Of a DNA stretch of 64,000 nt, positions 1-27,729 are shown in pieces; position 1 is the first letter of the stretch; each line of letters starts with the position of its first letter. The stretch covers positions 1-64,000 of the IMG/VR virus record IMGVR_UViG_3300032288_005212; one strand, written 5' to 3'. The stretch is from an uncultured virus (IMG/VR IMGVR_UViG_3300032288_005212). Lineage: Duplodnaviria; Heunggongvirae; Uroviricota; Caudoviricetes. A model generated the notes under the pieces. It was not told the origin of the DNA. It ran no database searches and worked only from the letters and a program-made list of their open reading frames with translations. Position numbers and translations under genes: made by a program.

Positions 1-877
1 CTGGTGAAGTTATAGAAGGAGATGGTGAGAAAGAATACTCTACGTTACCTGGATTATCTGTAGGAGCTGGGCTTACTCTTTTGTAAGCATAAACTATAGT
101 TGTGGTTGCTCCAGATACTCCAGGGGCTCCAGAATTATTTTTAGTAAAAGACTGAGTTCTAGATATAGAAAATGGAGTGTTATTTAATCTTTTACCAGTA
201 ATGCTATAAGTTATTTTTGCTGTAGAAGATATCATATTACTATGATCTCCTACAGTAACAAAATTTCCAGAGTCTGTTAAAGTTCCTACACTTATGCTAG
301 TACCTACTGGGGATACAGACCATGTACCTGCAGAAGTTGCTGGAGACGAGTATACTAATTCTGTTGCTCCTTCAAAGACATTTATAATAGTTCCAGATCC
401 TGCATAATCAGTTGGAGAAACATTTCCATTAGCATCAGCAGGAATATTGTGAGCTTCATTCTGTACTATTACTGTAAGAGCATCTGATCCGCTAGCTAGA
501 CCATATACCGTTATATAGTCTGACGAAATAATAGGAGAAGTATCCCCTTCATAAGCATCTACTCTAAATTGATATGCTGTATTTTTTGGGGGTATTCCAG
601 TATAGGCAGTTAGAGTATTATCTGTACTTTTAGACTGAACAGAAGCAAATCCTATTCCTACATTTCTATAGAATATATAATATGGACTAACTATATTTGT
701 TGGAGAAGCAGTTATATTAATACTACTAGGACTGGGATTACCAGCTACATCATAAATTATTGCTTGGTAATCAATTGTAGCGGTAACGGTTTTTGAAGCA
801 TTAACTATTGAGGCTGCGCTTAACCCATTAATTTTACCGCTATAATCAACATCTTCTGCTGGTCTAAAATTTGGCAT
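1..877 (-). CDS. Tail fibre / virion structural protein, 5' part (truncated by window edge)
   Basis: Hand-translated open frame from ATG at 877 (MPNFRPAEDVDYSGK...FSPSPSITSP) with AAGGA SD. S/T/G-rich beta-type composition, directly downstream of the tip protein gene. Confidence 0.7.
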   Translation of the reverse strand, partial: MPNFRPAEDVDYSGKINGLSAASIVNASKTVTATIDYQAIIYDVAGNPSPSSINITASPTNIVSPYYIFYRNVGIGFASVQSKSTDNTLTAYTGIPPKNTAYQFRVDAYEGDTSPIISSDYITVYGLASGSDALTVIVQNEAHNIPADANGNVSPTDYAGSGTIINVFEGATELVYSSPATSAGTWSVSPVGTSISVGTLTDSGNFVTVGDHSNMISSTAKITYSITGKRLNNTPFSISRTQSFTKNNSGAPGVSGATTTIVYAYKRVSPAPTDNPGNVEYSFSPSPSITSP

Positions 878-906
878 TTACTTATCCTTAAATTAATCCA
901 TAAAAC

Positions 907-3900
907 TTATGGGGCTGGAGAATACAGCTTTTTTGGAGTACCAACGAGAACACCATTCTCGCTAATATTAGTGTTAACTACTCTATATGCTTGAACCCAT
1001 GCATTATACCAATAATTAGCAGTTAAATTATTAATTTGATACTTATAATTACAAGAAGAAACATTTCCTGTATTTGTTAAGTGAGTACCAGATGAAGGGC
1101 TAACAAGAGAAATTTGGAATGATGATGCTGATACAGAAGAAGCTGTAAAATAGTCAAAACTTCCTGTACTATTAACATTTGGCATTAGTGGGCTACCAGT
1201 ACCTGTGGTTTTAACTCCAAATATTTTTATTTTCTCCCCATTAGAAAAATTGTGGGGATCCTGAGTAGTTATTGTAGCAGTAGTACCTACTGCCGATACT
1301 GTAGCTATCTTTATTCTTGGGTTTACTCGTGTTATATAATAAGATGTAGCTTTTGTATAATCATTATCCTGGTCAATTTCGGCAGAATCATTTACACTGT
1401 TTGAAGACCAAAAATATATAACAAAACCGTCAAGAGAGCTAGGAACTCCAACCCATTCCCACAATAAATTTATGTTTGCTGTACTATCCGGATTAACTCC
1501 TCCAGCCGGTACATCTATTCCAGGCGGTACAATTGAAACTTGGTCTGGCGTAATAGGTGTTTTATTATTATCATTAGATTTATTATAGTTTTCCATACCA
1601 TCGACTAAAGCAGTTGCTGAATCTCCAGTATTTCTACTTGGTCTCCATATGCCTCCAATATTTGGAACTTTCTCACTTATAGGTCTCATCCAATAACGAT
1701 ACGTACAACCCGGGCTAACAGTAGTATCAGTAAAACTAGTACCACTTACAGTTGCTAATTTAACTGCTTCGTACTTATATATGTCCACTTTATCCCCAAT
1801 ATCTAAATTTGTTACACTCTCGAGCTGTAATTTATCGTCTGAGCCATTATTTATCATATCTAATATTGAAGAATTAAACATACCTTGAACTATTTTAAAA
1901 TCATTCCCTGCTTTTTGTGTACCTACAGTAGTTATTGGCGTTGATAATACAAGCCTATCTATTTTTTTATTTCTTGCCCCACTCAACGCAGTTACATCTT
2001 TTATGTAAGCCATTTCATCTAAAGTCACGTTATAAAATATATCCCCTGGATTAGCTCTATTGAATGCACTATCAACAGCTGTGGAAACAGTATTAGTAAC
2101 TGCCGCAGGTAAAAACACATAAATCTTATCACCAACAGCTTGGTCTGATATAGGGTCAACAAAACCGACAGTAGAAGCAGTTACACTACTAATATCTCTT
2201 ACACTATTTCTAGTCATATTATAAAGTTTATACGACGTTGTAGGCGTCGGAGAAAATACAGAAGGAGCTATACTTACATTAGTTGTAGTTGTACCACTAG
2301 TCGTAGTATATATAGTTGGATGAGTATAGGATAATCTTTCTCTAAAAGAAGTAGCTGATGCTCCAGATACTACAAATACTGCATCTCCAGAGGTTTGGCC
2401 AGGTATACTTAATGCAGAATTTAAAAATCCTGTTAAAGTTACTTGGTTATTACTTATTTTAGATAAAATAACGCTACTTGTATTTCTTGTAGCATTGACT
2501 AATAAGTCTCCTTTAACTGCTGTTGTAAATAATCCAGTACACGTAACGCCTCTTGGGCTAGTAGTTGCACTAGCTATTCCAATAGTTGGATGAATATGTG
2601 TAGATATTGAAGAAGTAAAAACTTCATCTTTATCTATAAATACTACCATATCTGAGTCTTGTATCAAAGGACTCATGCTTGGTATAGTTACTATATTAAG
2701 TAGACCATCCGTAATCAATCTAGAATCTATTACTTCCGCAAAAGTACCTTTTGTAGTATTCATCATTAATGATTTATTGGGTACTGGCATATAATCAGGA
2801 TTATCATAGTTTAAAACGTTTGATGAATCTCCACCATACGCAGGCCCAATATAATCAAGAGAGTAGTCATAGATACTTCTGGCTTCTCTATCGCTAGCTT
2901 GATAGTATGCTATTATATCTCCACTAGCCTGTCCAGTAATAGTTGGACTAACAGTTATAGATTTTGGACTAACTATATTAGATACTTTGCTAGCTATTCT
3001 TCTAGTTCTATTTACTACTACATCACCTACTATTACATTGGAAAAAGTATCTGGCGAAGTAACGTTCAAAGTACTAGAGCTACTTCCTGTAACAACTTTA
3101 AATGTTTTTTGTTTAATTGCTCCAGACGGCTGTTTTTGCTCAAGAGTAACACCAACTACTCCTTTATAAGGATAAACAAAATTTCCAGAAGTTTGTCCAG
3201 AGCTACTTGGTGCAATTGAAATTTGAGATACCCATCTATTTTGACTATTTTTAGAATAAACTATAGAAGTAACATTACAAGCAGCAGGGCTATTAGTAGT
3301 TGTATTTACAATCTTATCGCCAATAGAGATATTTGGTTTTTCTTTAGTATTTAAAACCATCATAGATGGAGAAGACCCACTAGCTAATTTAAATCTAGTA
3401 TAGGGTAGCATATTAATTTCTACCCCGTATGGACTTAATGGCTCTCCGGGGCTCCATACACTAAGCCTATCAAAATTACTTAAAGTAATTTGATTATTTG
3501 GTACATCTATACTCTTAATATGGGCGGACCCTAATAGAGACCTTAGAGTCGATGCAGACTGTGGGCTAGCGGTTCTCCATATTTCATACTTTACAGGATT
3601 ATTTAATAATATATCTTCTTTCCACCCATGTGTTATAAATGTGCTACCAAAAGCGGTTTGATAAAATGTCTCAAATCTGTTTCTAGGCATTACTTCTTTG
3701 AGTTTTAAAGGACCAAGAAGTAAAGGTTCACTTTTTTGAGAAGAAGCACTGTCTAATGTATATATCTTAAAATAATAAATATCTGGAGGAGCATCTTGAT
3801 ACACATATTTTTGGGAAGTAGTACCACTAATAAGAATTTTACTTTGTGTGGCATTAATTACTTCTACCATATATTTCGTTCCAGAAATATACCTATCAGA

Positions 3901-6180
3901 ACTCCAAACAATTGTAATATCGTAATTTTTTCCGTCAATTTTATAGGTAAGATGACCTTCTGTTGGCGGTGGAATAAATAGTTTTAAAGGATTTGGATTA
4001 TATGAAGGAATAGGAGCATAAGCCTCTATCGCATCGTATTTATCAGGATAGTGTTGTAGTGCTGTAACTTCATACTCATATGGTCCATTCTCAACAACAG
4101 AAAGAACTTTAAATAAAGATGTATTTTCTACATCTCCTGGTTCTGTGTAACTCAAAGCCCACATATTTCCTGGGCTTGGTATCGGAGTAAGAGTCGTAGT
4201 AGGAGATAACGTTAATCTCGGAGATGCTACGGACGGTACAGTAGCTATAGAATATGAATTTAGCGTAGGTTTTAGAGTATTAGTTGTATTAGTATCTACT
4301 ACTTCGGTTTTTGCAGTAGGGGTTTGAACCCATAGAGTAACATTAGTAGAACCAGAGGGAACCGATACTGCAGAATCAACCGTAATTGAAGAAGAAGTTG
4401 CGGCAGCAACTCTACCAGCAGCACGATAAACTTGTCTATACGAATCTTTGATTTTAATTATAGATCCTGGCGTTACAACTCCCCCTTCCATACCAACTTT
4501 AAAGGATACAGTTTCTAATTCAAATTTTTCTGTAATTATTATATGTCTTCCAAGTCTTCTTGCTTGTCCGCGAGAAGTACACCCAAAACCATCTATTTCT
4601 ATCTCACGATAACCATAACGAGCAATTCCATCATAATCTTCTACATACTCAAGTTTTTCTGAATAAAGATCATCTGGATCAAGCCACTTAACTATAGCAA
4701 CAGTATGTCTTGCTTTTGTTCCAGAAGAAGAATAAGAAAAAATTCCATCAATTACGTTTGTATTGTTATACAAGTGTATTGGAGTAGAGGGTTTATCTTG
4801 AATAACTTCAATAATTCCTTGCTGAAAAAATGTTATACCTCTAAATAAAGATGCCATCCTTTGAACAACAGAATATGCTTCTTCTCTATTTGATATTAAA
4901 ATATTACAAGTAAATCTTGGCTCTTTTATTAAAGAGTTGGCAGCTGATGCAGCTACTCCTCCCAAACCGTCGGGAATACTAAAAGTGTAACTATTTGCAG
5001 GCTTACCTGCACGAGTATCGGCAACTACAGCATCACAATATTTTGCAATTTCATACAATCTCCACTTATTTAATAAAGTGGAATCAATATACTTTCCTAA
5101 CCCATATCTTGTATTTGTAATTAAATCATAAAAACACCATACCGGATTGTCTGTCCAATATCCATCCTTAAAAGTACCATCCCAAAGACCAGAATAATTT
5201 CTTTCAAGTACCTTTCCAGTTTTGTCATCACATACTACAGTATAATTACTCGGAACTTTTACTTTTAATAATTTTAAATCATAATTTCTTTTTGGTACTG
5301 ATCCATCAAAATTATTGGAATCAATAGTTAATCCAGCTAAAGCTGTATATGGATGAGAGTACTGATTACGGGTATATATAGTGTAAGATTTAAGGTACAT
5401 CTTACTATGAGCGCGATCATTCGTAGAATCATCCAAAGTTTTTGTGATTCTGAATAGAACTACGTCATCCACCTTGTTTACATAGTTTTGAAGATCATAA
5501 GGAGTAGCCCAGCCAGGAGGAAACTCTACTATGAAAGTCCAATCAAAAGGAGCAGAAGTCAATTCAATAGATTGTTGTTGCCAATCGAATCTTGTAGCCC
5601 AAGAACCACTTCCGTCAGCTTTTCTATTAACTTCTATCTTAAAACCTAAAGAAGTGCCATCTCTACCGCCAGATTCTTTGAAACGATAAACACCCTCTGG
5701 AAAAGTAAATGTAAAAGCAACAGCTTCTACTATTGGGTATGCCCCATCAGAATCATCCCGTATCTGAACTTGTTGTGTTACTGGGTTATTTAAAGTAAGC
5801 TCGTCTTGATAATTCGGAGCTTTTGCAGCGCCGATCAGACTATATTGAGATAGTGGGTTTTGATCGCTTGATCCATTTTTAAATTCAAATCTTAAGTTAG
5901 CAGAATTTATAGAGTTATTATAAGACTTTACAGCTGTTCCGTCTAAATAGATATGTTTTAATGGATCTGCTGTAGGCCATCCTTCAATTGGACCTTCACA
6001 AATAGCATCAATAATCTGACTTGTATTAAAAGTTCCCGTTTTGCCGGTAGTTGCACTATTAGATGCTCTTATTAAAGATGTTATATTGGAGTTATAATTT
6101 AAATTACTAGATGTAGACGAGTTTTGCGAACCAGAACCCGCGAAATATTGTCTTAATTTTTCCGTATCATAATTTATCAT
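907..6180 (-). CDS. Central tail fibre / tip attachment protein (lambda gpJ / TipJ-like)
   Basis: gpJ motifs IDAICEGPIEG, YSGLWDGTFK..WTDNPVWCFYDL, EPRFTCN and GCTSRGQARRLGR; long beta-rich C-terminal extension. Confidence 0.9.
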   Translation of the reverse strand: MINYDTEKLRQYFAGSGSQNSSTSSNLNYNSNITSLIRASNSATTGKTGTFNTSQIIDAICEGPIEGWPTADPLKHIYLDGTAVKSYNNSINSANLRFEFKNGSSDQNPLSQYSLIGAAKAPNYQDELTLNNPVTQQVQIRDDSDGAYPIVEAVAFTFTFPEGVYRFKESGGRDGTSLGFKIEVNRKADGSGSWATRFDWQQQSIELTSAPFDWTFIVEFPPGWATPYDLQNYVNKVDDVVLFRITKTLDDSTNDRAHSKMYLKSYTIYTRNQYSHPYTALAGLTIDSNNFDGSVPKRNYDLKLLKVKVPSNYTVVCDDKTGKVLERNYSGLWDGTFKDGYWTDNPVWCFYDLITNTRYGLGKYIDSTLLNKWRLYEIAKYCDAVVADTRAGKPANSYTFSIPDGLGGVAASAANSLIKEPRFTCNILISNREEAYSVVQRMASLFRGITFFQQGIIEVIQDKPSTPIHLYNNTNVIDGIFSYSSSGTKARHTVAIVKWLDPDDLYSEKLEYVEDYDGIARYGYREIEIDGFGCTSRGQARRLGRHIIITEKFELETVSFKVGMEGGVVTPGSIIKIKDSYRQVYRAAGRVAAATSSSITVDSAVSVPSGSTNVTLWVQTPTAKTEVVDTNTTNTLKPTLNSYSIATVPSVASPRLTLSPTTTLTPIPSPGNMWALSYTEPGDVENTSLFKVLSVVENGPYEYEVTALQHYPDKYDAIEAYAPIPSYNPNPLKLFIPPPTEGHLTYKIDGKNYDITIVWSSDRYISGTKYMVEVINATQSKILISGTTSQKYVYQDAPPDIYYFKIYTLDSASSQKSEPLLLGPLKLKEVMPRNRFETFYQTAFGSTFITHGWKEDILLNNPVKYEIWRTASPQSASTLRSLLGSAHIKSIDVPNNQITLSNFDRLSVWSPGEPLSPYGVEINMLPYTRFKLASGSSPSMMVLNTKEKPNISIGDKIVNTTTNSPAACNVTSIVYSKNSQNRWVSQISIAPSSSGQTSGNFVYPYKGVVGVTLEQKQPSGAIKQKTFKVVTGSSSSTLNVTSPDTFSNVIVGDVVVNRTRRIASKVSNIVSPKSITVSPTITGQASGDIIAYYQASDREARSIYDYSLDYIGPAYGGDSSNVLNYDNPDYMPVPNKSLMMNTTKGTFAEVIDSRLITDGLLNIVTIPSMSPLIQDSDMVVFIDKDEVFTSSISTHIHPTIGIASATTSPRGVTCTGLFTTAVKGDLLVNATRNTSSVILSKISNNQVTLTGFLNSALSIPGQTSGDAVFVVSGASATSFRERLSYTHPTIYTTTSGTTTTNVSIAPSVFSPTPTTSYKLYNMTRNSVRDISSVTASTVGFVDPISDQAVGDKIYVFLPAAVTNTVSTAVDSAFNRANPGDIFYNVTLDEMAYIKDVTALSGARNKKIDRLVLSTPITTVGTQKAGNDFKIVQGMFNSSILDMINNGSDDKLQLESVTNLDIGDKVDIYKYEAVKLATVSGTSFTDTTVSPGCTYRYWMRPISEKVPNIGGIWRPSRNTGDSATALVDGMENYNKSNDNNKTPITPDQVSIVPPGIDVPAGGVNPDSTANINLLWEWVGVPSSLDGFVIYFWSSNSVNDSAEIDQDNDYTKATSYYITRVNPRIKIATVSAVGTTATITTQDPHNFSNGEKIKIFGVKTTGTGSPLMPNVNSTGSFDYFTASSVSASSFQISLVSPSSGTHLTNTGNVSSCNYKYQINNLTANYWYNAWVQAYRVVNTNISENGVLVGTPKKLYSPAP

Positions 6181-6183
6181 ATT

Positions 6184-8463: not shown

Positions 8464-8816
8464 TACTCATAAACCCTTTCAAAAGTAGCAGTAAGTGACG
8501 CAACAGATGTAGCATTATTTCCGCTATAATTTATAGTACTTACATTCCAACTCCTGCAAATTACTTTTACTTCAGGACTTTCACCCGGAGCACCAAATGT
8601 AAATGCTGTATTGCCGCCTTTTGCCTCTAAAAAAGCCTCCATTGCTAAAATAGTACTTAGTGGACGATTTACAAATGAGAGATCCCAACTCTCATTCATA
8701 TAGTTTATTCCATCTTGAGCTCTTTGGCTATATCCATCTCCAAATCGTACTTCTCGAATACGTGGAGCGGAATTTCTAGAAAGACCTCTATCTGGTGTAT
8801 ATGCCCAATCAGCCAT
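8463..8816 (-). CDS. Minor tail protein M (lambda gpM-like distal tail protein)
   Basis: FGDGYSQRAQDGIN, FLEAKGG..AF.F and LTATFERVYE motifs. Confidence 0.9.
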   Translation of the reverse strand: MADWAYTPDRGLSRNSAPRIREVRFGDGYSQRAQDGINYMNESWDLSFVNRPLSTILAMEAFLEAKGGNTAFTFGAPGESPEVKVICRSWNVSTINYSGNNATSVASLTATFERVYE

Positions 8817-11800
8817 TATCTTCTACCTCTAAATAATAATCCGCCAGGTCTCTGCTGGTTAAATATTTCTTGTTTTACTGCATTTGAGATTGCAGTTCCA
8901 AGTCTTCTTGAGTATTCTTCTGTGTTATCTTTTGATGACGTATTTGTTGTAGCACTTCCAGATCCATCAACTGCAACGTTAATAGCAATATTATTTGTAT
9001 TTCCGCCACCATTACTCATTGTTACAGGAATTGTGCGACCATCTGGAAGAGGTACATACGCCTCTGGGCGTGATCCTTCTCCGAACATTGCAAGTTGTGG
9101 AGTTCTTGCTATTCCTCCACGAGCATATTTTTCGAGAGGCATTGGACCAGAGGAAGACATTACGCCACCTTTTTCAAAGCTAGAGCCTACGGTTCCACCT
9201 ATTTGGCTACCAATCATTGCCCCAGCAGGGCCTCCAACTGCACCACCTATGGCTCCACCTATGGCTCCTAATACTCCGCCTAAAAGCGCTTTCTTAGGAC
9301 TAGCACCTGCAGCAAGTGCGGCAGCCATTTGTGCAAATCCTGCCGCAGCTATAGTGCCTACATTTTCTGTGGCATAAGTTTGAGCATCCCCCCAAAAACT
9401 AGTTTCTTTTACTGTATTAGCAGTATTAATACTTGTTTTATCTAAAGTATCATAAGTCATTCCACCTAACTGATAGTTTTTCTGATCCCATTTTTGTGAT
9501 TCTTTAAAATAATCTATAGTTTTTGGATCACCAGTAGGTGTAGGATTAAAACCTGCTGTATAAACTCCTTGCTCATTAATACCGCTCTTAAAACCATTCA
9601 GTGTTGGGACTAAACCGCCCGCTACTGGCATAGATGTTACAGAACCTCCGCAGCAATTTGCTGTATTATTAGCAATCTCCTGCAATAAGTCAGTATGACT
9701 TTTAGCTGTTTCAGTAATAGCCTTTGTAGTAGCTTTGGTAGCTTCAATTGCTTTATCTTGTGGGGTTTTGAATACCTCAGCTATTCCGCCCATTCCAGAG
9801 GCGGTAAATAATCCAGCTATCCCTTCTTTTAATTTATTTTTTGCAGCTTCTGCAAGTCCTTCTCTTAAACTATCGCGTACTGCAGAACCAATAGCCTTAA
9901 AAGCATTCTTTCCTTCTACTATTGCATCTACGAAGGAGTCTACAGCACTATTAACAGCATTAGAGAAAATATCAGCAAGTTCTTGAGTAATCGATTTTGC
10001 ATCTTGTAGGGTTTTTAAGAAATTTTGTCCAATCGCAGTAGAAATATCCTGCCAAGAAGTCGTCATTTTTTGCGTCCAGCCAAATACAGCTTGTTGTGCT
10101 TGTATTTGCGCTGCAGTTATTTCTGATACTGCAGCTTCTGTTTCCGAACGAGTTGCGGCTGCGGCCGCTTGAGCTGCTTGCGGTAAAAGTACGGCGGCCT
10201 CTGCAAATACTCCAGGTAATGTATCTATTAATGTTTGTATATTACCTAGCTCAGCGGGATCTGTTGTTTGATTTTTTAAAGTTTGAAGTTGGCTTTTTAA
10301 TGTAATTTCTTGTATTTTTAATTGAGCGCCCATTAATTTATATTCAAGATCTATAATTCTTAGTTTCATTTCTTCTTCTTCACGAAGCAGCGCTTTTTTC
10401 TTTTCGCCAAACTCCATTTCTAGTTGAAGAGTCTGTTGAGCTGTTAATTCATACTCACCAATACCTTTATTACGAAGATTTATAGCTTTTAATTCGTTTT
10501 CTCTAATAGTTCTTTCGTTGTCTAGTATAGTAGACTTTGAAGAATTAATTTTTTCCTGAATATTTCCGGTTACATTAGCAAGGTCAATTTGGCGCTGAAT
10601 CAAATCGGCTGAAACCTGAGCAGTGGCTTCAGTATTAGCCTTATCAAGTACAGCGACTTTTAATTTATCATCAGTTATAGCCTTTTCTCTATCTAAGTTT
10701 GCTTGTGTTCTTTGTTGTACAGCAATTTGAGAGTAGTTTAAACCTTGAAGTGCTGTATAAGCATCTTTCAATGCTACAAGATTCTGTTGTGTTTCCGTAT
10801 CTTGTGGAGTAGCTGCAGATTGTTTTTGAAGATCCTTAATATCTTTAGCAAGTTCAGCCCTTAAAATGGCTAACTTAGCATTATTAAGTTTTTCTTCCAT
10901 ATTGATTGTACGAAGTTTTAGCCCATACTCTCTATTTATATTAGCTGTTTTTTGATTTTCAAATTTGCGAAAAACTTCCAATTGCTGGCGAGCAGAGAGA
11001 GCCGCCTCACCGCCTTGTTGAATATTTTGTAGTTGTAAGGAAGTTTCTTCTATACTTATCCGAGACTCAAGTATTGATTTTGAAAGATCAAGTTGTTTTT
11101 GTAGTATTGAAACAATTTCCTGCTCACCGCTCATTCTTCTTTCTAAATTAGTATAAGCTCTTTTAGCGTTTTCGATTTCCGTGCTAGCTGAAAAATTGGC
11201 TTGTTCTGTTATAAGTATACCACGTCTTGAAGCCAATTCTATTAATTTAGTTTCAGCAGCTCGTCTATCTGCGGTTTCATCTGATACTAATTTTTGTTGT
11301 TGATTTATCTCATCAGTAATATATGAAATTTCATCTGTATATATCTTATCTTGCAGCTTTTGCCTTGAATCAAAACTAGCTTTAGTTTCAAAATTAGAAA
11401 GCTTTATTAATGAATTTATATACTCTAAACTCTGTTTTTCTCTATTTAATATCTGAAGCTTTATATCCATGGCTTCTTTTATAGCAGTTTCTTGTTCTAA
11501 TCTTTTTTCTGCTTCTTCTGATAATTTTTCTGCTCTTCCAGAAGCTTTTTGTGCAATTCTCTCAATTATCTCTAATATTTTAAGTCTATCTTTTTCACCC
11601 GTTATTTGCTCTAGACCTAAACCTTGAACTTCTAGGCCTACTGATTTTAAAGCATCTTCAATTTTTTTAACGTCTTGATAAGTAAAATTTACGCGAAAGT
11701 CTACTGATTTTATTTCAGCTACCGCTCTACTAAAGGATTCGGCCCCCTTTGTCGCAGAATCTAACTCTGCTTTAGCTACATCTAAACCTAAAAATTTTGC

Positions 11801-15101: not shown

Positions 15102-16304
15102 TTAAACGGAGTAAGTGATATAAGCTTCATCCGTACTATCAACATTTCCATTAGCTACGATACCATGGAAGTTGACTTCAAGAGTTAGCAAATCATCAAT
15201 ACCAATATTTGGAATTTCCAAGTGAGCTGTCGGAAGTGTAAGAGCTAGTCTTGGAGTAGAGCTAGTAGTACCTCCAATATTTACAGTTAATGAGTGATTA
15301 TTTCTTACAGAGGTAGTATCACTAATCAAATCGCTCCAAAGTTCTGCTGACTTAAATGCGGTTGTATCATTATCATAATAACAAGTTAAACTTCCAGAAA
15401 TAGTACGTGCACCAGTAATGTTTGCAATTGGAGCATTAACTAATCCGAGCTGCTCAGGTATAAGATAATTAATATTGTTCTCTACAGTGAAAGAACCGCC
15501 AGTTAATATAATACTATAAGTATCCCCACCGCTCTTAGCAAGAGATACTGTAGATAATCTATTACGAATAAAATTCGTAGTAGCAGATACACCTTCACTT
15601 ACTGGATTCGCTATGGCTGCGGGAGCAGAAGCGGATCTGGTAAGAGATCTAGCAAAGCCACTCCATTGTGCCGTAGCAATTCCTTCAATATCAAAATCAA
15701 TTGTTACTGAATTTACTACCATATCGGACATAGTAAAATATTCTGTATTTGTACCATCAACGAACGATACATACATCGTATTACCTGAAGGCATGGAAGA
15801 AACGTTTGATGCAGAAAAGTCAAATACGTTTGAACTGCTTGACGTAGCATTATTGATAAATGCACCCCCAATCCCGCCAGGTGAAACAAATGGGGATATT
15901 GACGGAGATGGAGAGTTTGAGGAAGAAGGTGAGCCTAAACCAACTTGTGTAGAATAAAAAGTTCTAGTAGTTGGTTGATACCCATTAGCACCCATCAATA
16001 TTGCCCACAATACCTGTTCTGGAGCAACGGCTGTAACAGGAGTTGCTCCAGTTGTTGGACGAATATAAGTGCTAAAACTCCACTCTACAGGAGCTATTGA
16101 GTCATTAAAGAGCAAACGAGCTCTTCTTGATGCGAAACCCGCTTCATTAATCGTAATTTCACTAGAGTTTGTGGATTGTGAAAAAGAAAACCCAGCAAGT
16201 ACTGGAATTTGAAACACAGAATTATCTGGACTAGCAGATGGTGTTGTAAACGCAGTTCTTACATAAACTTTTGCGTTTCTTTGAAATTGTAAGGCCATGG
16301 GCAT
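15102..16304 (-). CDS. Major tail tube protein (T5 pb6-like)
   Basis: LQFQRNAKVYV, GFSFSQ, FNDSIAPVEWSFSTYIRP, IDFDIEGIATAQWSG, FIRNRLS and GARTISGSLTCY motifs. Confidence 0.9.
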   Translation of the reverse strand: MPMALQFQRNAKVYVRTAFTTPSASPDNSVFQIPVLAGFSFSQSTNSSEITINEAGFASRRARLLFNDSIAPVEWSFSTYIRPTTGATPVTAVAPEQVLWAILMGANGYQPTTRTFYSTQVGLGSPSSSNSPSPSISPFVSPGGIGGAFINNATSSSSNVFDFSASNVSSMPSGNTMYVSFVDGTNTEYFTMSDMVVNSVTIDFDIEGIATAQWSGFARSLTRSASAPAAIANPVSEGVSATTNFIRNRLSTVSLAKSGGDTYSIILTGGSFTVENNINYLIPEQLGLVNAPIANITGARTISGSLTCYYDNDTTAFKSAELWSDLISDTTSVRNNHSLTVNIGGTTSSTPRLALTLPTAHLEIPNIGIDDLLTLEVNFHGIVANGNVDSTDEAYITYSV

Positions 16305-18868: not shown

Positions 18869-18876
18869 TTGGTACC

Positions 18877-20835
18877 TTACCAGGTGCCGACAACAACTTG
18901 ACCGGCTGTGGAGAACATACGATCAAAGCCACGACGCTGCGTAGCAACCAGAACACGACGCTGGTTTTCAACGTCATAGTCCTGCTCAACCGTAACACCA
19001 CGAAGGACTGGAATAACGAAGTTACGAACGTTTACAGCAACCGCGCAAGCATTACCGTCTGTCTTTGAGGCGAACTCATCACAAACAATAACTGGAGTTG
19101 CATAGATCGAACCTACTTGACCAGTTACCTTGGTAGCAAGACCTTGGCCAACTAGATTAACATCATCGTACTCGGAATCATCAAGAAGATCGTAGTACGC
19201 ATCAAGAGATACGATAAATACGAGATCATTTGGATTACGGCCATACTTACCCATCGCCTGACGAAGGTTAAGTAGTTTAGCAGCCGTGACTTGAAGGTTA
19301 GGTGAACCAAAGTCAAATGTCTTCGAGTCATCGCGAGCCATTTCTACAAGACCGTCATAGGCATTGGCTACAATACCCGTAGAGTGACCACCAAGCAGAA
19401 TTGAATGCTCAATAGAACGTGCATGGGCGCGAACCATTGCGTCACGGATGTATGGAAGAACTGGAATAATTGCATCCTCTTCCACTTCGTTGGCAATATA
19501 AGACTTTGAAACAAGCTTAAGAGCCTGCAGAGTCTTAATACCCATCGTAATACCGTTATTTACACCAGGTGAAGCAGCGTCACGAGCCTCAAGATTACCT
19601 TTATGTGGGTTGCTAGCACCTGAACCAGCACCTGACAAGAAGTCAGCGTAGCCAGCATCTGGAAGTGTTGGAACAACCATAGAAGCAGCATTCATAGTAA
19701 TCTTACGGAACAGCGGGTCAAGAACTAACTGAAGCTGAATATCCTCTTCGATTGAAGTTGAAACTTGCAGCTGGAAAGCATCGCCAGCCGTACCCGCACC
19801 GCTAGGAACCATAACACCGGAGTCAGTGTTTGCAGCTTTCTCTATAAATTGACGGCCAATCTTCGTGTCGAGACCCTTACGAGTAATTACACCAAGAACA
19901 TAAGCGTCTTTTGCAGCTTCAATATCAAAAGCCTTCTCATCAGAGCGATTCGAGAATACACGCTTGCTCTCACGAATCTTTTGGATTTCGTCAGCTTTCT
20001 CTTTCAGCTCTGACTGAAGCTCGCTTACAACGCGAGTATAGTCAGCATCTTTTTCCGCAAGACGCTTTTCAACATCTTGCATTAGTCTTTCTGTGCCGCT
20101 CTGAACGGCAGTTATAATGCGAGCCTCGTCGGCAGCCTTTTTCGCAGCTTCTTCTTCAAGAGCTTTTTGCTTGCGAGCTTCTTCAGCTTTCTTCTCGGCA
20201 TCCTTCATAGCCATAGCCGTTGCTGTTTTTTCTACAGCTGCAGCTACGATGGCATTGATATCAATATCACTCATAGTCTTCTCCTGTGCTTCGACTTCTT
20301 CTACGAAGTCAACCGATTCGTTCTGTTCGAAGGAATCTTTTAACGTTTTTTTGAACTCTTCATACTCACTGTCTGAGTTAAAAGATTTAGCTAAAGAAAA
20401 AGTTGCAGCTTGATTAGCAGGAACGGTGACTACCGACACTTCTAACAGTTCTGCGTCCTTGATCTTATATCCATCGGATTCCCTCAAGTATTCGGCGTCC
20501 TTGACTCGGAACCCGACAGAAAAAGCTCCAAGAACGCCCTCCTTAATTAATTCTCTCACGTGACCAGCAGATTTGGCAATTTTTGCTTTTAACTGCAGAC
20601 CATTATCTCCAGTACTAAGCTCTACCGCTCGTCCTATAGGCTGATTATAGTCGTGATTGAATAAAATTACAGGATTATTTAGATAGTTTTGTAAACCACC
20701 TTTTGTCCAAGCAGCCGCTTCGATAATGTCGCCTACTCTATCAGTATCAGCTGTACTAGCCATACCTCGAATAAAAACATCATCATCTTCTTCGAACGCT
20801 TTAAAGGTGGAGCCAATATGAAAAATTTTATTCAT
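18877..20835 (-). CDS. Fused HK97-family prohead protease + scaffold + major capsid protein
   Basis: N-terminal Peptidase_S78 motifs (ILFNHDYNQPIG, FSVGF, LLEVSVVTVPAN), coiled-coil delta domain, then HK97-fold capsid (LRQAMGKYG, VLVATQRRGF). Confidence 0.9.
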   Translation of the reverse strand: MNKIFHIGSTFKAFEEDDDVFIRGMASTADTDRVGDIIEAAAWTKGGLQNYLNNPVILFNHDYNQPIGRAVELSTGDNGLQLKAKIAKSAGHVRELIKEGVLGAFSVGFRVKDAEYLRESDGYKIKDAELLEVSVVTVPANQAATFSLAKSFNSDSEYEEFKKTLKDSFEQNESVDFVEEVEAQEKTMSDIDINAIVAAAVEKTATAMAMKDAEKKAEEARKQKALEEEAAKKAADEARIITAVQSGTERLMQDVEKRLAEKDADYTRVVSELQSELKEKADEIQKIRESKRVFSNRSDEKAFDIEAAKDAYVLGVITRKGLDTKIGRQFIEKAANTDSGVMVPSGAGTAGDAFQLQVSTSIEEDIQLQLVLDPLFRKITMNAASMVVPTLPDAGYADFLSGAGSGASNPHKGNLEARDAASPGVNNGITMGIKTLQALKLVSKSYIANEVEEDAIIPVLPYIRDAMVRAHARSIEHSILLGGHSTGIVANAYDGLVEMARDDSKTFDFGSPNLQVTAAKLLNLRQAMGKYGRNPNDLVFIVSLDAYYDLLDDSEYDDVNLVGQGLATKVTGQVGSIYATPVIVCDEFASKTDGNACAVAVNVRNFVIPVLRGVTVEQDYDVENQRRVLVATQRRGFDRMFSTAGQVVVGTW

Positions 20836-20836
20836 A

Positions 20837-22274: not shown

Positions 22275-22623
22275 ATTTCTCTCTTTGAATTCTTACCCAA
22301 CTTTCTTGTTTCTTTGCTGTCGAAAGTTTTGGGTTTTTACCATAAATACTGTGTAGTTTCATGTGGTGAGGGTTGCAGAGAGTGACTGTCGCTTCAAATA
22401 GTTCATATTTATGTTGCTCTATAAATCGATCTCTCTCTGCAATTGCTTCTTCGTCACTTTTTACTTCACCGTTTATACGTTCCCACGCATGAACTAGCTC
22501 GCTTACGCTGTAAAAGTGATGAAAATCTAATTCTTCTGTTATTCCGCAAATCTCACAATAGCTTTTTTTCTGATAAGAAGATTTTGCGGCATCTCTTATC
22601 CACTTAATGAAATATCTTTTCAT
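22261..22623 (-). CDS. HNH-type (nicking) endonuclease, T5-like
   Basis: CEICG..EELDFHH and VTLC..HH..LH.IYG motifs; same position between TerL and portal as in T5. Confidence 0.85.
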   Translation of the reverse strand: MKRYFIKWIRDAAKSSYQKKSYCEICGITEELDFHHFYSVSELVHAWERINGEVKSDEEAIAERDRFIEQHKYELFEATVTLCNPHHMKLHSIYGKNPKLSTAKKQESWVRIQREKYGLV

Positions 22624-22628
22624 AACGT

Positions 22629-22657
22629 ATTATAGTGAGGTATGAGGTAAAAGTCAA
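22629..22657 (-). promoter_or_regulatory. sigma70 promoter for HNH/portal/capsid operon
   Basis: TTGACT-17-TATAAT with T/A-tract UP region. Confidence 0.8.
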
Positions 22658-22678
22658 GAAAAATTTTTTTGCCGGTCT

Positions 22679-23959
22679 TCAAAATGTTGGCGCAGCCACT
22701 TCAAAGCTATAAAGAGCATATCTGATCGCATCTGCCATGTGGCTAGAACTGTCATGGAGTGGCTTTTCTTTTATGAGATTTGGGTTTGGGTCCCAGCGAT
22801 ACTGGTCAAGAGTTCTCAATACCTCTCCACATGATTGATCTACGATTAATTTATCATTTTCAACTAAAGATGCTACATATCCAATGCCATCAATTACAGA
22901 TTTCTTTGCATTTTCAGTAGTAATATCATAGTTTTGTGCAAAATCATAGCGCGTTTGCGCGGCAGCCGAATCAATAAAGCAATAATCCACATCACGACGC
23001 TGAATAATTTCAGATATATGGCGAGCGTGCTCTTCTGTTGTACGCTCCGCAGCATAATACTCCTCTAAACAGTAGTACTTTTCCCCATCATAGGCAAAAA
23101 CACAGAAGGCAGTTGGGTCCTTAAAGCCAATATCAATACCCGCGATAATATCCATTCCTCGAATATCAAGACTCGATAGATCCGCTACGCACTTCTCATA
23201 GTCAAAGTTCCATATCTGGCCTTGGAAAATATTAAAGTCTGCTTCGTACTCCTGAGCAAATTCGGCAGAAGACATACTTCGACGAGCTTCATCAATGTCA
23301 CTTACAGCAGCTCGAGGATTGTCCTTCCAAGTTGCTTTTATCGAAGCCCATTCGCTAAACTCATCAGTAAAGCCACGAGCGAAAAAACGGCTAAACCAAT
23401 TATTACGGCCCCGAGGAGTGGAGATAAATAAAGCTTTACTGCCCGGTTTGTCGAGTGTCGGCCGAATAGCCACGTTAAAAGCAGACTCACCATCAGCGAG
23501 TGCAGCTTCGTCAAATAGAACAAAATCATAAGAACGTCCTACTACTGAATCGATTTGATTCACTGAGCCGAGTCGTATCGTTGATCCGTTCGCCATTTCA
23601 ATTACACGATCTTTTGCGTTATCCTTTGATACCTCAAGATCAAAATGCTTTATGAGATTTCTTTGCAAATCAAAACTAATCTGGCTAAGATTATAGTTTG
23701 GTGATACAATCAATACATGAGAGTTCGGAACAAGCGAAACACACTGAGCGATGATATTTCCAATATATGTTTTTCCTTGTCGACGAGATAAAGCGCCCAC
23801 AACAAAACGATATTTTGGATTATTAAGTGCATTAATTAAGGCGATCTGAGAAGGAATAGGATCTATTCTTAATAAATCTAAATATCCAGTAATAGGTACT
23901 TTCAAAAAATCGCCCTTTAGTACTCGATCAGTTATTATATCTTTTCGGCTAATTTCCAT
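22679..23959 (-). CDS. terL: Terminase large subunit
   Basis: Walker A SRRQGKT, Walker B VLFDEAA, ISTPRG, nuclease GIDIGFKDPTA and SHMADAIRY motifs. Confidence 0.97.
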   Translation of the reverse strand: MEISRKDIITDRVLKGDFLKVPITGYLDLLRIDPIPSQIALINALNNPKYRFVVGALSRRQGKTYIGNIIAQCVSLVPNSHVLIVSPNYNLSQISFDLQRNLIKHFDLEVSKDNAKDRVIEMANGSTIRLGSVNQIDSVVGRSYDFVLFDEAALADGESAFNVAIRPTLDKPGSKALFISTPRGRNNWFSRFFARGFTDEFSEWASIKATWKDNPRAAVSDIDEARRSMSSAEFAQEYEADFNIFQGQIWNFDYEKCVADLSSLDIRGMDIIAGIDIGFKDPTAFCVFAYDGEKYYCLEEYYAAERTTEEHARHISEIIQRRDVDYCFIDSAAAQTRYDFAQNYDITTENAKKSVIDGIGYVASLVENDKLIVDQSCGEVLRTLDQYRWDPNPNLIKEKPLHDSSSHMADAIRYALYSFEVAAPTF

Positions 23960-24196
23960 TTAACACTCGCAGGGATGTAGTTTGCATCTTTCACAGATTG
24001 CAAATCCAAGAATTGACTCGTAAGGACTTAGTTGGTGTACCTCTTCAGGTACTTCAACAACTATGTTAAATTCTTGGAGGCCAAGCTGGCCTCCAATTTG
24101 AACAGTAGCATTTATTGCTTCTTCTTGAGTTGTAAACCAAAGGTGATCTTGACCTTTTAGCTTCCAAGCTCCGTTTTTTTGATAGAGGTGAAACAT
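23960..24196 (-). CDS. Small Cys-rich (CxxC..PCEC) protein, paralog 2
   Basis: Ends ICERCKLHPCEC; resembles the upstream ORF. Confidence 0.6.
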   Translation of the reverse strand: MFHLYQKNGAWKLKGQDHLWFTTQEEAINATVQIGGQLGLQEFNIVVEVPEEVHQLSPYESILGFAICERCKLHPCEC

Positions 24197-24429
24197 TCAC
24201 AGGGCTCCAAGTTACAAATTTTACAAACATTTTTTTCAATCATGATTTCATATGGAGTAGGATCAGGCGATAGTTTTTCAAGTACTTTTTTAAGCTCCAT
24301 CACTGCTCTTAATTTTGCAGCTTCTTCCTTTGCTAGCATTCTCTCGTACACTGCTGTTACAGCTTCGAGGCTAGTGTATTTTTGAGGATATCCTCTTATT
24401 GCCCAATACTCTCCTTTTTGATAAATCAT
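24157..24429 (-). CDS. Small Cys-rich (CxxC..PCEC) protein, paralog 1
   Basis: IYQKGEYW / VCKICNLEPCEC; resembles the downstream ORF. Confidence 0.6.
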   Translation of the reverse strand: MIYQKGEYWAIRGYPQKYTSLEAVTAVYERMLAKEEAAKLRAVMELKKVLEKLSPDPTPYEIMIEKNVCKICNLEPCECFTSIKKTELGS

Positions 24430-24704
24430 GCTCTTCTCACTACTTCGGCTGCTAAAAATAAAATAGCAGATCCGCTTACAGCTAAAACAAGTTTATAAAG
24501 AGCATCAATACGCATCTTTGATTCTTTCATCACATCACGCGTATGAGTTTGAAAATCTCTTAACTCGTTAAAGATTGTTTTCCATCTTTCTTCAACAACA
24601 GCTTCATGACGATAAAAATCCTCTCGAAGAGAGCGATGCTCTCTCCATAGATCATCAAGCTGCTGTTGGGCCGACCAATCACGATCCTGAGCTCTCCGTT
24701 CCAA
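24426..24704 (-). CDS. Coiled-coil protein with C-terminal TM segment
   Basis: HEAVVEERWKTIF coiled coil followed by a hydrophobic tail. Confidence 0.55.
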   Translation of the reverse strand: MERRAQDRDWSAQQQLDDLWREHRSLREDFYRHEAVVEERWKTIFNELRDFQTHTRDVMKESKMRIDALYKLVLAVSGSAILFLAAEVVRRA

Positions 24705-25113
24705 GTAATTTCTCCATTAGTTTACCATAGTTTCCTTCGCCAAAGGGAGAATTTATCTGAACATTATTCTGCTGTCGAATGGTATTTTTCGGCTCTTTTC
24801 GATGATCTTCGGCAACCTTGTGTGCAAGTGCTAGGATATCAACAAGATCCTTTGAAGAATACATACCCGCTTCTCGAGCTTCCTGTAGTTTGTTCTCGAT
24901 AATTTCATCAAGCAATTCGGCGAGACGAAAACGATTACGGTAACCTTGGTCTAAATAGACCGAATTCATGTATTCTTTTACTTCCGACTTTGCAAGTATC
25001 GAGTGCACCACGTCGGGTGTAATTCCTAAACTGGAAGCGGCTTTGATTGCACATCCCGTAGAGAGATACGCATTTGCGACTTCAAGGTTTTCAGGAGCAA
25101 GTTTAACTAACAT
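24679..25113 (-). CDS. terS: Terminase small subunit (T5-like)
   Basis: LAPENLEVANAYL, EVKEYMNSVYLDQGYRNR, KLQEA and NNVQIN..NY resemble T5 TerS. Confidence 0.85.
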   Translation of the reverse strand: MLVKLAPENLEVANAYLSTGCAIKAASSLGITPDVVHSILAKSEVKEYMNSVYLDQGYRNRFRLAELLDEIIENKLQEAREAGMYSSKDLVDILALAHKVAEDHRKEPKNTIRQQNNVQINSPFGEGNYGKLMEKLLGTESSGS

Positions 25114-25573
25114 TTATAAAACTCGGTGGTGTTGGCCATGGCGCATCTGAAATATTAATATACGCTGGTGGGTCCGCAATTACTGGTTCTGTAATATCAC
25201 GAAGTGCTTGTCGATATATTGCGCTTTCAGTAATTTGCTCCGAAGTGAGCGGAGCATCTGGTAGTTGAGTCCAGTCTGATGCAAATAAACGTCGATCTCT
25301 TTCAAATCTTAAATCTTGTAAATAATTTACTAAATTAACTTCCCAACTAGTGCCTGTCCATGAACAATATATACTTGGAGCTGTCGGCCTACTCTGTAAT
25401 GAAGTTCCATCCCAATATCTTTGTCTAATAAAATCGCCTCTACTTAATCCTTCTAAATCATTTAGATATACAACTATATTTCCATCTTCCTGCATTCCAG
25501 GTTCAGGATTATTCATCGGTAGTGCATCTGCTATATTTATAATTTCACTATTCTTAATCACAATTATCATCAT
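25103..25573 (-). CDS. Tail fibre assembly chaperone
   Basis: LR.ERDRRLFASDWTQLPDAPL...YRQALRDIT...WPTPP motif. Confidence 0.85.
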   Translation of the reverse strand: MMIIVIKNSEIINIADALPMNNPEPGMQEDGNIVVYLNDLEGLSRGDFIRQRYWDGTSLQSRPTAPSIYCSWTGTSWEVNLVNYLQDLRFERDRRLFASDWTQLPDAPLTSEQITESAIYRQALRDITEPVIADPPAYINISDAPWPTPPSFINVS

Positions 25574-26193
25574 GGAATTGCTACCTTTGCTAATAGTAAT
25601 GTTTGATTTCTAAAATAACCATTACCAAAAATTCCTAAACTTATTACAGAACTATATCTCACTGTTGACGGACTAACCCAACTAAACCCATTAAGAAAAT
25701 ATTGTCCAGTTTGATAGGAGGACTTATTTAAACACCCGTATACAGTTTGATAATCTGTTCCTGTATAAGCAATAGAAGATGAACTACTTACATCACCTCT
25801 TAGTGTGCCAGGATCAACTACTGTTACAATTTGTAAAATAACATCTTGTCCAGATGAAAAAACACCAGAATCGAATGCAAGTTGCCCGTCTGCATTATAT
25901 ACTCTTAAACCATATGTTTGGGAAGAGGGTGACTCTGAAGAAACAGGCCTTAATATATAATAGTCTGCTATTTGAGAGAAAGTTATTTTTGACGGCGGAG
26001 AGACATTGGCATGTAAAGAATTAAGACCTCCATCAGGTTTTGCAAATATTAAATCCTTACTAGTATCTAAGCCTGTCAAACCAGTCACTGTAGTTGCAGT
26101 ACCTGAAGCTACAAGTTTATGATAAGCATATGGTTGATCGCTATCAATTTGTATGTTATTACTTGTTCCTGTTACTAATAGACCATATGCCAT
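25570..26193 (-). CDS. Minor tail / fibre-associated protein
   Basis: MAYGL..., QIDS and YGLRVYNADGQLAFDS motifs typical of siphophage fibre adaptor proteins. Confidence 0.65.
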   Translation of the reverse strand: MAYGLLVTGTSNNIQIDSDQPYAYHKLVASGTATTVTGLTGLDTSKDLIFAKPDGGLNSLHANVSPPSKITFSQIADYYILRPVSSESPSSQTYGLRVYNADGQLAFDSGVFSSGQDVILQIVTVVDPGTLRGDVSSSSSIAYTGTDYQTVYGCLNKSSYQTGQYFLNGFSWVSPSTVRYSSVISLGIFGNGYFRNQTLLLAKVAIP

Positions 26194-27729
26194 TTATTTA
26201 TACCTCCCAGCATAATATGTAACCGCTATAGGGCTTGTAGTTGGGTTATTAATTCTTACAAAACCTGAATTTCGTACAGGTGAGTAATATGGATTACCCG
26301 AAAGCGGTTCAGAAGGTCCATCTGCGACAAAAAATACACTAGCGGAATTAGTTGCAGTGAGACCAGCTACAGTAACATCTACGAAAGATGATGCTGCTAT
26401 AGTAGTACCAGTTGAAGCAGAGCCAGAGATTTTGCAAGTTATAAAATTTGTAACTAGCGTACTTGTGTCAAATACTACTTTCGTTCCAGGACTATTATAT
26501 ACTCGTAATCCATATGTAGCAATCTGTGGAACAGTTTGAGCTGTTGATAAATCAAAATCTACTGAATCTGTGGATCTTCGGGCATAAAAATAATAAGTAT
26601 TTCCTCTTGTAAATGCATTATTAAACGTAGATGAAGACTGCCAATTTGTTACTGAAGCTTGTGAATTGGTACCAGTAGTATTCCACCCATATTGTAAGGT
26701 ACCTCCAATTCCTGGAGCATCTAAAGTTATAGAATGTGAGACTATAGTGGGGCTTTCATTATTAAAAGTTTGTGTATCATCTACAGTAGGTTTTCCTATT
26801 CGTAAAATACTGAAAGAAGTATTTGCTCCAGCCGGACTATACCATAGACCATCTCCTCCAGAAACCGGAGTTCTTCTTACTTGAAATTTATAATCTGCTT
26901 CTGAACCCGGACTAGGTAACTCAGAAGTTCCTCCTGGAGAAAGAGTACCACTGCCTGCTGTAGTTAAAGAAATAACAACTACGTTTGTGCCAGAATCCGT
27001 TCTTAATAATCTATAAGTATTAAACGTTGTAGTTGTCCAACTTATGTTTACTGGAGAACTATTTCCACCTGTTAATTCTGTTTTTTCTACAGTAACAGTT
27101 ACGTTTAAGTTAGGGGATATAAAAGGTACATCAAAAGGACCGTTATATACTGCAAACTGGCCTTCGTTTGTTGATACACCAACACCTCGACGAGCACCTA
27201 TGTAAACCCTCTCTCCTCTATCAAGTGTTAACCTTGCGGTAGTAGTCCATCCATTTGGAGAGTACACTGGAGGAGAAACGTTTGTGGCCCAATATTCAAG
27301 GGTTCCACCAGCTCCAGATGAAGAAAGTGTTGGACTATGAAGAATTGCTGCAACTGGAGAAGTTGCAAAAGTTTGTGTAGCGCTTACCGCAGGATTTGTA
27401 ATTGCAAGTACTACAGCCGAAGAAGTTGCTGGTGATAAATACCCATTACTTCTTATACTTTCTTGGACCCAAATTGTGACCGGACTTCCAGCATTCCTCG
27501 GCCAAGTTGGTGATAAAGCCGTAGATGGGCTTATCGTTCTAATTGTCGGGTTTGCAGTTAATGTCTGCGGCTGCCCGGTTGTGTATACTGTGGAGCCTGT
27601 AGGGCTAGCCTGGTTAGTTATTCGATAAGAATACGGACTAGTAGCATCAACTACTCCCGTATACTCAACTTGAGCATTTGGAGAAGTATCTAACTTATAA
27701 AATGTTGCCCTTGTAAATGTACCAGCCAT
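26194..27729 (-). CDS. Putative receptor-binding / fibre protein with internal domain duplication
   Basis: S/T-rich; duplicated block TQTF......HS.TL...G.GGTL.Y...RG..Y..ARR; C-terminal YGLRVYN..VFDTS; sits where T5 encodes pb5. Confidence 0.6.
   Translation of the reverse strand: MAGTFTRATFYKLDTSPNAQVEYTGVVDATSPYSYRITNQASPTGSTVYTTGQPQTLTANPTIRTISPSTALSPTWPRNAGSPVTIWVQESIRSNGYLSPATSSAVVLAITNPAVSATQTFATSPVAAILHSPTLSSSGAGGTLEYWATNVSPPVYSPNGWTTTARLTLDRGERVYIGARRGVGVSTNEGQFAVYNGPFDVPFISPNLNVTVTVEKTELTGGNSSPVNISWTTTTFNTYRLLRTDSGTNVVVISLTTAGSGTLSPGGTSELPSPGSEADYKFQVRRTPVSGGDGLWYSPAGANTSFSILRIGKPTVDDTQTFNNESPTIVSHSITLDAPGIGGTLQYGWNTTGTNSQASVTNWQSSSTFNNAFTRGNTYYFYARRSTDSVDFDLSTAQTVPQIATYGLRVYNSPGTKVVFDTSTLVTNFITCKISGSASTGTTIAASSFVDVTVAGLTATNSASVFFVADGPSEPLSGNPYYSPVRNSGFVRINNPTTSPIAVTYYAGRYK

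Follow-up and report, generated by a model that had tools for sequence, protein, structure and literature searches.

The window analysed here comprises positions 1 to 64,000 of IMG/VR virus record IMGVR_UViG_3300032288_005212 (64,000 nucleotides) and represents the first part of a 106,084-bp single-contig phage genome, which is graded complete by CheckV. The phage is T5-like and aquatic. Its positions 1-28 kb, on the minus strand, hold a siphovirus morphogenesis module with a lambda/T5-type tail tip, further minus-strand fibre-type genes lie at 90-106 kb of the genome, and a glycan island of about 12 kb and about 17 genes occupies 53.4-65.7 kb. In this phage and its closest relatives, the fibre, tail and capsid proteins that face outwards carry the dipeptide Ser-Pro (SP) at four to five times the level expected by chance. 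A first reading of the window (hereafter the original prediction) had proposed that the serine of SP is the acceptor for an O-linked, methylated glycan coat made by the phage, and that the structural genes have been selected to accumulate the motif. The virion proteins concerned, with z-scores from per-protein shuffles where given and lengths in amino acids (aa), are listed below.

Positions 26194-27729, minus strand: side-fibre-like protein of 511 aa, a chain of Ig/FN3-like domains, with 20 of 36 prolines in SP.
Genome positions 97135-99573, minus strand: protein of 812 aa with 20 of 41 prolines in SP and no Thr-Pro (TP).
Window positions 1-877 (N-terminal 292 aa) together with genome positions 102411-106084, minus strand: repeat-containing fibre protein of 1516 aa with 44 of 106 prolines in SP.
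Positions 907-4224, minus strand: distal two thirds of TipJ (aa 653-1757), with 18 of 72 prolines in SP (z 3.4).
Positions 4225-6180, minus strand: hub part of TipJ (aa 1-652; Pfam Phage-tail_3 and FNIII-A_GpJ), with none of 27 prolines in SP, serving as an internal control.
Positions 15102-16304, minus strand: T5 pb6-like tail tube protein of 400 aa (phrog_3575).
Positions 15879-15932, minus strand: hypervariable loop of the tail tube (aa 125-142), with five SP.
Positions 18877-20835, minus strand: prohead protease and major capsid protein in one 652-aa open reading frame (ORF), with SP at aa 422 and 511.
Positions 8816-14215, minus strand: tape measure protein of 1799 aa, with one of 31 prolines in SP and eight TP, serving as a negative control.

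The per-protein comparison of observed and expected SP, which the original prediction had called for, was carried out on all 165 ORFs, and four proteins stand out: the 511-aa fibre (z 8.3-8.4), the 812-aa protein (z 7.2-7.3), a 142-aa protein adjoining the latter (z 4.3; four of six prolines in SP) and the 1516-aa protein (z 8.6). Proline is preceded by serine in 88 of 189 cases (47%) in these four proteins, compared with 103 of 1163 (9%) in the remaining proteome (Fisher test, odds ratio 9.0, p 4e-33). TP is not enriched in them although threonine is as common as serine, SP ranks first among the 400 dipeptides in both the 511-aa fibre and the 812-aa protein, and the other loop-favouring pairs GP, DP and NP are not enriched. 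Non-structural proteins show no excess (observed/expected ratio, O/E, 1.09), and neither do the tape measure, portal, terminase, chaperones and neck proteins. Among 880 ORFs from 80 related T5-like loci, z 4 is reached by two, both with only 4-5 SP; six larger phage contigs, related and unrelated, hold about 990 ORFs, none of which reaches this value. The serines of SP are encoded by both codon families (TCN 47, AGY 41), which places the signal, and the selection on it, at the protein level; together with the lack of excess in non-structural genes, this rules out a DNA-level motif or a mutational bias.

The hand counts behind the original prediction were reproduced throughout. The 511-aa fibre holds 63 serines, 79 threonines, 36 prolines, 20 SP and one TP; 11 of 21 prolines are in SP in the 292-aa N-terminal part of the 1516-aa protein (coordinates 2-877); all 18 SP of TipJ fall at residue 653 or beyond; the five SP of the inserted tube loop, the single SP of the tape measure and the contexts AASPG (aa 422) and FGSPN (aa 511) in the capsid and VASPG in the head completion protein (adaptor) are all present.

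An AlphaFold2 model of the 511-aa fibre (pLDDT 78.6), whose fold matches are tandem Ig/FN3 proteins, places 19 of the 20 SP serines outside predicted strands, compared with 27 of the 43 other serines. Ten full-length homologues with 51-65% identity retain z 5.6-10.6, with about ten conserved SP positions and many lineage-specific ones, and no excess was found in two distant homologues that share only the C-terminal part. At the SP sites of the query, the residue before proline in the ten homologues is serine in 88 of 95 cases, threonine in five and another residue in two, and serine without proline occurs in 35 cases. Since serine without proline is common and proline without serine is rare, SP behaves as a unit, in which proline was gained on a pre-existing serine. 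SP serines are also better conserved than other loop serines among these homologues (identity 0.62 vs 0.37). The original claim that the structural genes were selected for the motif is thus borne out in the form of a Ser-specific, protein-level unit in loops of outward-facing proteins.

The contexts flanking SP are diverse in both the 511-aa fibre and the 812-aa protein. Homologues of the latter are limited to two weak partial matches (29-34% identity) and to giant proteins sharing just its N-terminal 50-200 aa. This N-terminal stretch, with a YWVGGSGNW-type motif, is found in public data in thousands of giant proteins (1000-6000 aa), often in several copies each, and the rest of the protein has almost no relatives. 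The SP count of the 1516-aa protein is raised by about five internal repeats of about 190 aa (repeat block z 8.2), and its non-repeat N-terminus by itself still reaches z 3.7.

TipJ shows the same polarity in a relative (G005), where none of 25 hub prolines and 14 of 49 distal prolines are in SP. The tail tube could be followed through 53 distinct IMG/VR orthologues, of which the nine closest (46-64% identity) carry a mean of 4.6 SP vs 1.9 expected, and the 44 distant ones a mean of 0.4, with SP in the aa 125-142 loop in none of them. The sequence of this loop differs in each close relative, and most again hold one to five SP, for instance as SPSP-x-x-SP-x-x-SP; outside the loop the tube has a single SP, at aa 25. 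Capsid orthologues behave alike, with 3.4 SP in the close clade vs 1.4 in the distant orthologues: the clade-specific sites (aa 423, 492 and 510-517) change position within loops and have no counterpart in any of the 35 distant sequences, and SP at or next to aa 422 and 511 is found in up to six of nine clade sequences, our own included, and in none of the 35 others. SP does not differ between close and distant relatives in the portal, terminase, adaptor, terminator, chaperones and tape measure. Judged from these orthologues, the SP excess is clade-specific and has been gained and lost repeatedly, and the observation is in this respect firmer than the original prediction had it. A lineage-wide shift limited to exposed proteins of unrelated folds points to a factor acting in trans, and the independence of the signal from fold (Ig/FN3 fibre, 812-aa orphan, repeat fibre, tube and capsid loops) favours a trans reader rather than one structural role.

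The large glycosylation gene set that had been noted in this genome is confirmed as an island with the following members.

Positions 53367-53981, plus strand: minimal Maf/sialyltransferase-like transferase of 204 aa, the first island gene and part of the conserved head (phrog_4603, E 1.9e-28).
Positions 53974-54603, plus strand: GT8-like glycosyltransferase of 209 aa, the second head gene (PF01501, 27.2 bits, above the cut-off).
Positions 54600-64000, continuing to about 65.7 kb, plus strand: variable island body with two GT2 glycosyltransferases, methyltransferases and sugar enzymes.
Positions 62530-63249, plus strand: 2OG-Fe(II) oxygenase of the prolyl-hydroxylase superfamily (PF13640, E 1.9e-16).

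Besides the two GT2 enzymes, the island body encodes three to four methyltransferases, a short UDP-sugar dehydrogenase, an epimerase, a WecB/FnlC-like 2-epimerase, the oxygenase, an FnlA-like dehydratase, an RmlD/FnlB-like reductase and several proteins of unknown type. No transmembrane segment was found in any island protein, and the island has no flippase, polymerase or initiating transferase, so that the glycan would have to be built on a soluble cytoplasmic acceptor. The island lies between a lysozyme gene and a core gene. The T5-like relatives G001 and G003 have no genes inserted at this site, and in G002 it is occupied only by a short, unrelated gene set that includes a GT8-like gene. 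In L155/L156, whose flanks are 72-92% identical, the Maf-like gene is 78% and the GT8-like gene 92% identical, and the body of L155 consists of ten non-homologous genes, including GT29-like, nucleotidyltransferase, kinase-like, dehydroquinate-synthase-like and short-chain dehydrogenase/reductase enzymes. A more distant island (G011) keeps the head at 60% (Maf-like) and 68% (GT8-like) identity with a third, different body. A conserved head followed by a swapped body is the layout that would be expected of a fixed acceptor-recognition step and a subsequent, diversifying surface glycan. This layout resembles that of O-antigen or flagellin-glycosylation islands. The methylated nature of the glycan is suggested solely by the three to four methyltransferase genes.

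The first island enzyme is modelled with high confidence (AlphaFold2 pLDDT 93.8), and its top fold match in the PDB is Maf of Magnetospirillum magneticum (5MU5; E 7.7e-5, TM 0.65 on the query), followed by CstII of Campylobacter and ST8Sia enzymes. Against PF01973 (MptE-like/DUF115), it scores 24.9 bits over residues 8-50 only, below the cut-off of 34.6, and most of its homologues carry a precomputed PF01973 match. The full-length Maf architecture (about 600 aa with flanking domains) is not found here, as the phage protein has 204 aa and its homologues 180-320 aa. Homologues with 26-28% identity are located in or beside structural or morphogenetic modules of the cultured phages P1 (PmgO), Pseudomonas D3-like phages, where the gene has the capsid gene on one side and the adaptor gene on the other, and Citrobacter phiNP; they carry the RefSeq name alpha-2,3-sialyltransferase.

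The oxygenase belongs to an FnlC-oxygenase-FnlA-FnlB cassette that runs through window positions 61508-64000 and on to genome position 65017. Its residues H125, D127, H195 and R207 are invariant among 23 homologues and S209 nearly so (HxD...H and RxS), and its PDB relatives at E < 0.6 are prolyl hydroxylases (OGFOD1, the Dictyostelium-type prolyl 4-hydroxylase 6T8M and prolyl hydroxylase domain proteins) or unnamed putative proteins. The four-gene cassette is present in 15 IMG/VR contigs, some from jumbo phages (198 and 282 kb), with a constant order in phages; a Planctomycete metagenome-assembled genome (MAG) has all four genes in a different order, and a Bacteroidetes MAG fragment has two of the four. 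Two jumbo phages with the cassette (59-60% identity) have SP at 0.93-0.97 times the expected level over the whole genome (O/E), with every ORF below z 4, and the L155 island, which keeps the head, has no homologue of the cassette. From its gene neighbourhood, the oxygenase is probably an enzyme of a nucleotide-sugar pathway.

As to whether the island tracks the motif, three T5-like relatives (G001-G003; 86-94 kb, 77-91% complete) have neither the 12-kb island nor the Maf-like gene, and no SP excess was found in their tube, TipJ or any ORF. A fibre homologue (P0002; 21 SP, z 10.6) and an oxygenase 95% identical to that of the window both have a parent contig listed at exactly 90,797 bp; judging from this identical length, the two probably share one contig, so that island and motif would occur together in a sibling phage. 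None of 15 IMG/VR contigs held tube and island genes together, and scanning the fibre homologues P0002 and P0015 against viral contigs found nothing; one metagenome, scanned likewise for fibre homologues, yielded short contigs only.

Marine virus AG-345-E08, which has an oxygenase homologue and three proteins with SP z 4.5-5.7, was rejected as independent support, because its SP sites belong to an RCC1-repeat consensus, YSSPVQIPGTTW. In this virus (L009:8942-17024), the three RCC1-like beta-propeller proteins, each blade of which carries the consensus, lie beside tail-fibre genes. The genes immediately downstream form a sugar-modification cluster that includes four 2OG-type oxygenase-like genes (two 2OG-FeII_Oxy_5, one DUF6445 and the island-oxygenase homologue), a GT25 enzyme, a sulfotransferase, a GDP-mannose-dehydratase-like enzyme and a PfkB kinase.

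Taken as a mechanism, S-P in surface loops would be a recognition signal for an enzyme acting in trans on assembled or assembling virion proteins in the host cytoplasm, and the most likely modification would be O-glycosylation of the serine. The Maf-like and GT8-like head would place the first sugar or sugars on the serine of S-P, with a host-made CMP-sugar or another donor for the Maf-like enzyme. The variable body (GT2 enzymes, methyltransferases and the FnlABC-type cassette with its oxygenase) would then build a lineage-specific, partly methylated oligosaccharide from nucleotide sugars, and the resulting glycan coat would cover the side fibres, distal tail tip, tail tube and capsid. We tentatively favour this reading, in which S-P may well mark virion O-glycosylation sites that are served by the island and primed by its head. 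A wider form of it, in which a portable Maf-like and GT8-like priming module that uses a host CMP-sugar and bears interchangeable bodies provides a general, undescribed virion sugar-coating in phages of Gram-negative aquatic bacteria, with an S-P sequon that structural genes gather and lose, is possible but on the doubtful side.

Several known systems offer a comparison. According to Freeman et al. 2023 (Cell Host Microbe), as summarised in PMC12619734, the virions of mycobacteriophages Che8, Corndog and Myrna are glycosylated by phage-encoded glycosyltransferases. The phage studied here likewise encodes soluble glycosyltransferases (GT8, two GT2 and the Maf-like enzyme, none with a transmembrane segment), and the subunits of its capsid and tail tube also count as candidate targets. 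In mycobacteriophages, the glycans are reportedly attached to extensions at the C-terminus of the capsid and tube subunits; here, in contrast, the candidate sites are in internal loops (tube aa 25 and 125-142 of 400, capsid aa 422 and 511 of 652) and there is no C-terminal SP cluster. Furthermore, the fibres would be the main carriers, the island is much larger (about 17 genes, Maf-like first), the phage is T5-like with a host that is not an actinobacterium, and the glycan is a prediction from genes. As far as we know, actinobacteriophages are the only group in which phage-encoded glycosylation of the virion has been demonstrated, with no defined acceptor motif.

Maf enzymes O-glycosylate many serines and threonines on the exposed part of a structural protein that is made in the cytoplasm and self-assembles. 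Together with CstII, Maf gives the best fold matches of the first island enzyme. The phage protein differs from Maf in its size (204 vs about 630 aa), being a catalytic core without the flanking domains, in its score below the curated Pfam cut-off and in the lack of a CMP-activated sugar made by the phage; moreover, Maf glycosylation of flagellin works without an S-P sequon. The heptosyltransferases Aah and TibC (BAHT family), which are soluble cytoplasmic enzymes, modify many serines of the exposed adhesin-type proteins AIDA-I and TibA; they recognise a structural beta-helix motif and not S-P, and no BAHT homologue was recognised in the phage.

Several observations weigh against the glycosylation reading. 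The existence of any modification, the residue that carries it and the enzyme that recognises S-P are all inferred. We know of no O-glycosyltransferase with an S-P sequon, and a literature search for such a sequon or for glycosylated tail fibres returned nothing relevant. The association of island and motif amounts to one SP-rich lineage against three distant relatives and is not phylogenetically replicated; G011 has the island head, yet its distal fibres are only weakly enriched (z up to 2.5), on a contig without tube and capsid. The comparison of relatives with and without the island, which the original prediction had suggested, came out as expected in G001-G003 and remained limited to this single lineage, with G011 as a discordant case. 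No SP excess was found in phages with distant Maf-like homologues (a D3-like phage and phiNP, at 27% identity, as well as L162 and L166), which leaves unsupported the idea that any member of the Maf-like family predicts an SP excess. The complete 106-kb genome contains neither a PF02348 cytidylyltransferase nor a PF03102 NeuB, both of which were matched in control genomes; with no CMP-sugar synthetase or NeuB-type synthase in the phage, the donor of a Maf-type enzyme would have to come from the host. The 1597-aa and 509-aa proteins of the same fibre block are not enriched, so that the predicted enrichment in exposed virion proteins holds for the four proteins and for the tube and capsid loops and does not extend to all exposed proteins. 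Finally, the exposure of the SP sites was judged from secondary structure alone, and it is in this sense that a loop location was seen in the fibre.

The excess might instead be an unmodified structural or evolutionary feature of loops, for example Ser-capped proline turns that stiffen loops or protect them from proteases and that became fixed through the history of this lineage, with the island serving the host envelope, DNA or another protein. Such an origin would suit the 19 of 20 fibre SP serines that lie in loops, as most other prolines do, and G011 with its island head and no strong excess; repeat consensus alone can also yield an SP excess, as the RCC1-like YSSPVQIPGTTW of AG-345-E08 and the five repeats of the 1516-aa protein illustrate. 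However, the excess is shared by proteins of unrelated folds and is found in loops of the vertically inherited tube and capsid proteins of a single clade, whereas the same folds in distant relatives are without it. The lack of enrichment of GP, DP and NP and the diverse SP contexts in the fibre and the 812-aa protein also speak against a loop feature, which would leave the near absence of TP and of proline after residues other than serine unexplained. We regard this explanation as rather unlikely, though one to be taken seriously.

It seems improbable that S-P is read from outside the island, whether by a modifying enzyme of the host, by some other enzyme of the phage or by a partner that binds it, for example a surface ligand of the host or an assembly factor. 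Clade and Ser specificity call for a trans factor without naming it, dozens of small phage ORFs have no assigned function, and the link to the island is weakened by G011; yet among the scanned proteins encoded outside the island, none was recognised as a kinase, acyltransferase or other protein-modifying enzyme, and the island is the one large set of clade-specific genes found at a site that is empty or differently occupied in G001-G003. A further route would be hydroxylation of the proline of S-P by the island oxygenase and glycosylation of the resulting hydroxyproline (Hyp), following plant and algal Ser-Hyp glycoproteins (arabinogalactan proteins, extensins) and PhyA/Gnt1 acting on Dictyostelium Skp1. 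These systems resemble the phage in having S-P as a determinant and, encoded near the glycosyltransferases, an oxygenase of the prolyl-hydroxylase superfamily; the invariant HxD...H and RxS residues and the PDB relatives of the oxygenase agree with this, and the tube loop resembles SPSP-type arabinogalactan motifs. Unlike in Ser-Hyp systems, the phage oxygenase travels with a nucleotide-sugar cassette and does not track the SP excess: it stands between the FnlC-like gene and the FnlA-like/FnlB-like pair at every locus found, including those of the Planctomycete and Bacteroidetes MAGs, which points to a nucleotide-sugar step, the cassette-bearing jumbo phages are without SP excess, and L155 keeps the head without the cassette. 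Prolyl hydroxylation of S-P is weakened by these findings, and we consider it very improbable. O-glycosylation of the serine by the island enzymes stays the reading that we tentatively prefer.

The remainder of the locus is that of a T5-like phage. The head genes of the morphogenesis module comprise small and large terminase subunits, portal, the protease/capsid ORF, adaptor and terminator, and its tail genes the 400-aa pb6-like tube, chaperones, the 1799-aa tape measure, gpM/L/K/I-like proteins and the 1757-aa TipJ. Next to the 511-aa fibre lies one further pair of genes.

Positions 25103-26193, minus strand: fibre-associated protein of 207 aa (three of nine prolines in SP) and tail-fibre-assembly-like chaperone of 156 aa (none of 14; phrog_4912, tail fibre assembly).

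The best capsid matches in GenBank are Vibrio phages of 120-129 kb, with an identity of just 37%. The prohead protease part of the 652-aa ORF covers aa 12-235, and in the nearest GenBank relatives the region that matches the ORF is annotated as two genes. The 1516-aa protein spans the two ends of the contig (genome positions 102411-106084 plus 1-877), and the 292-aa fragment forms its N-terminus; with the contig cut inside this fibre gene, either the genome is circularly permuted or its terminal repeats have been collapsed. The 1597-aa protein (genome positions 90225-95018, minus strand) is Thr-rich and has a strong excess of QP, PA, NE and LQ (z 7-12), which probably reflects a different internal repeat. 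Window positions 28000-37000 form a block of 46-51% G+C, compared with about 38% genome-wide.

If the glycosylation reading is true, the phage would show a variant of virion glycosylation not seen before, whose sequon could be read from the sequence. A two-residue sequon would let glycosylated virion proteins be predicted across metagenomes and would give a direct handle for experiments, and it would help to account for the frequency, among aquatic phages, of large sugar-gene islands that lack export genes. The FnlC-oxygenase-FnlA-FnlB cassette may be an undescribed oxidised 6-deoxy-hexosamine pathway common to phages and bacteria. Sugars covering the fibres, tube and capsid would matter for host recognition, for the stability of the particle and for grazing or immune recognition.

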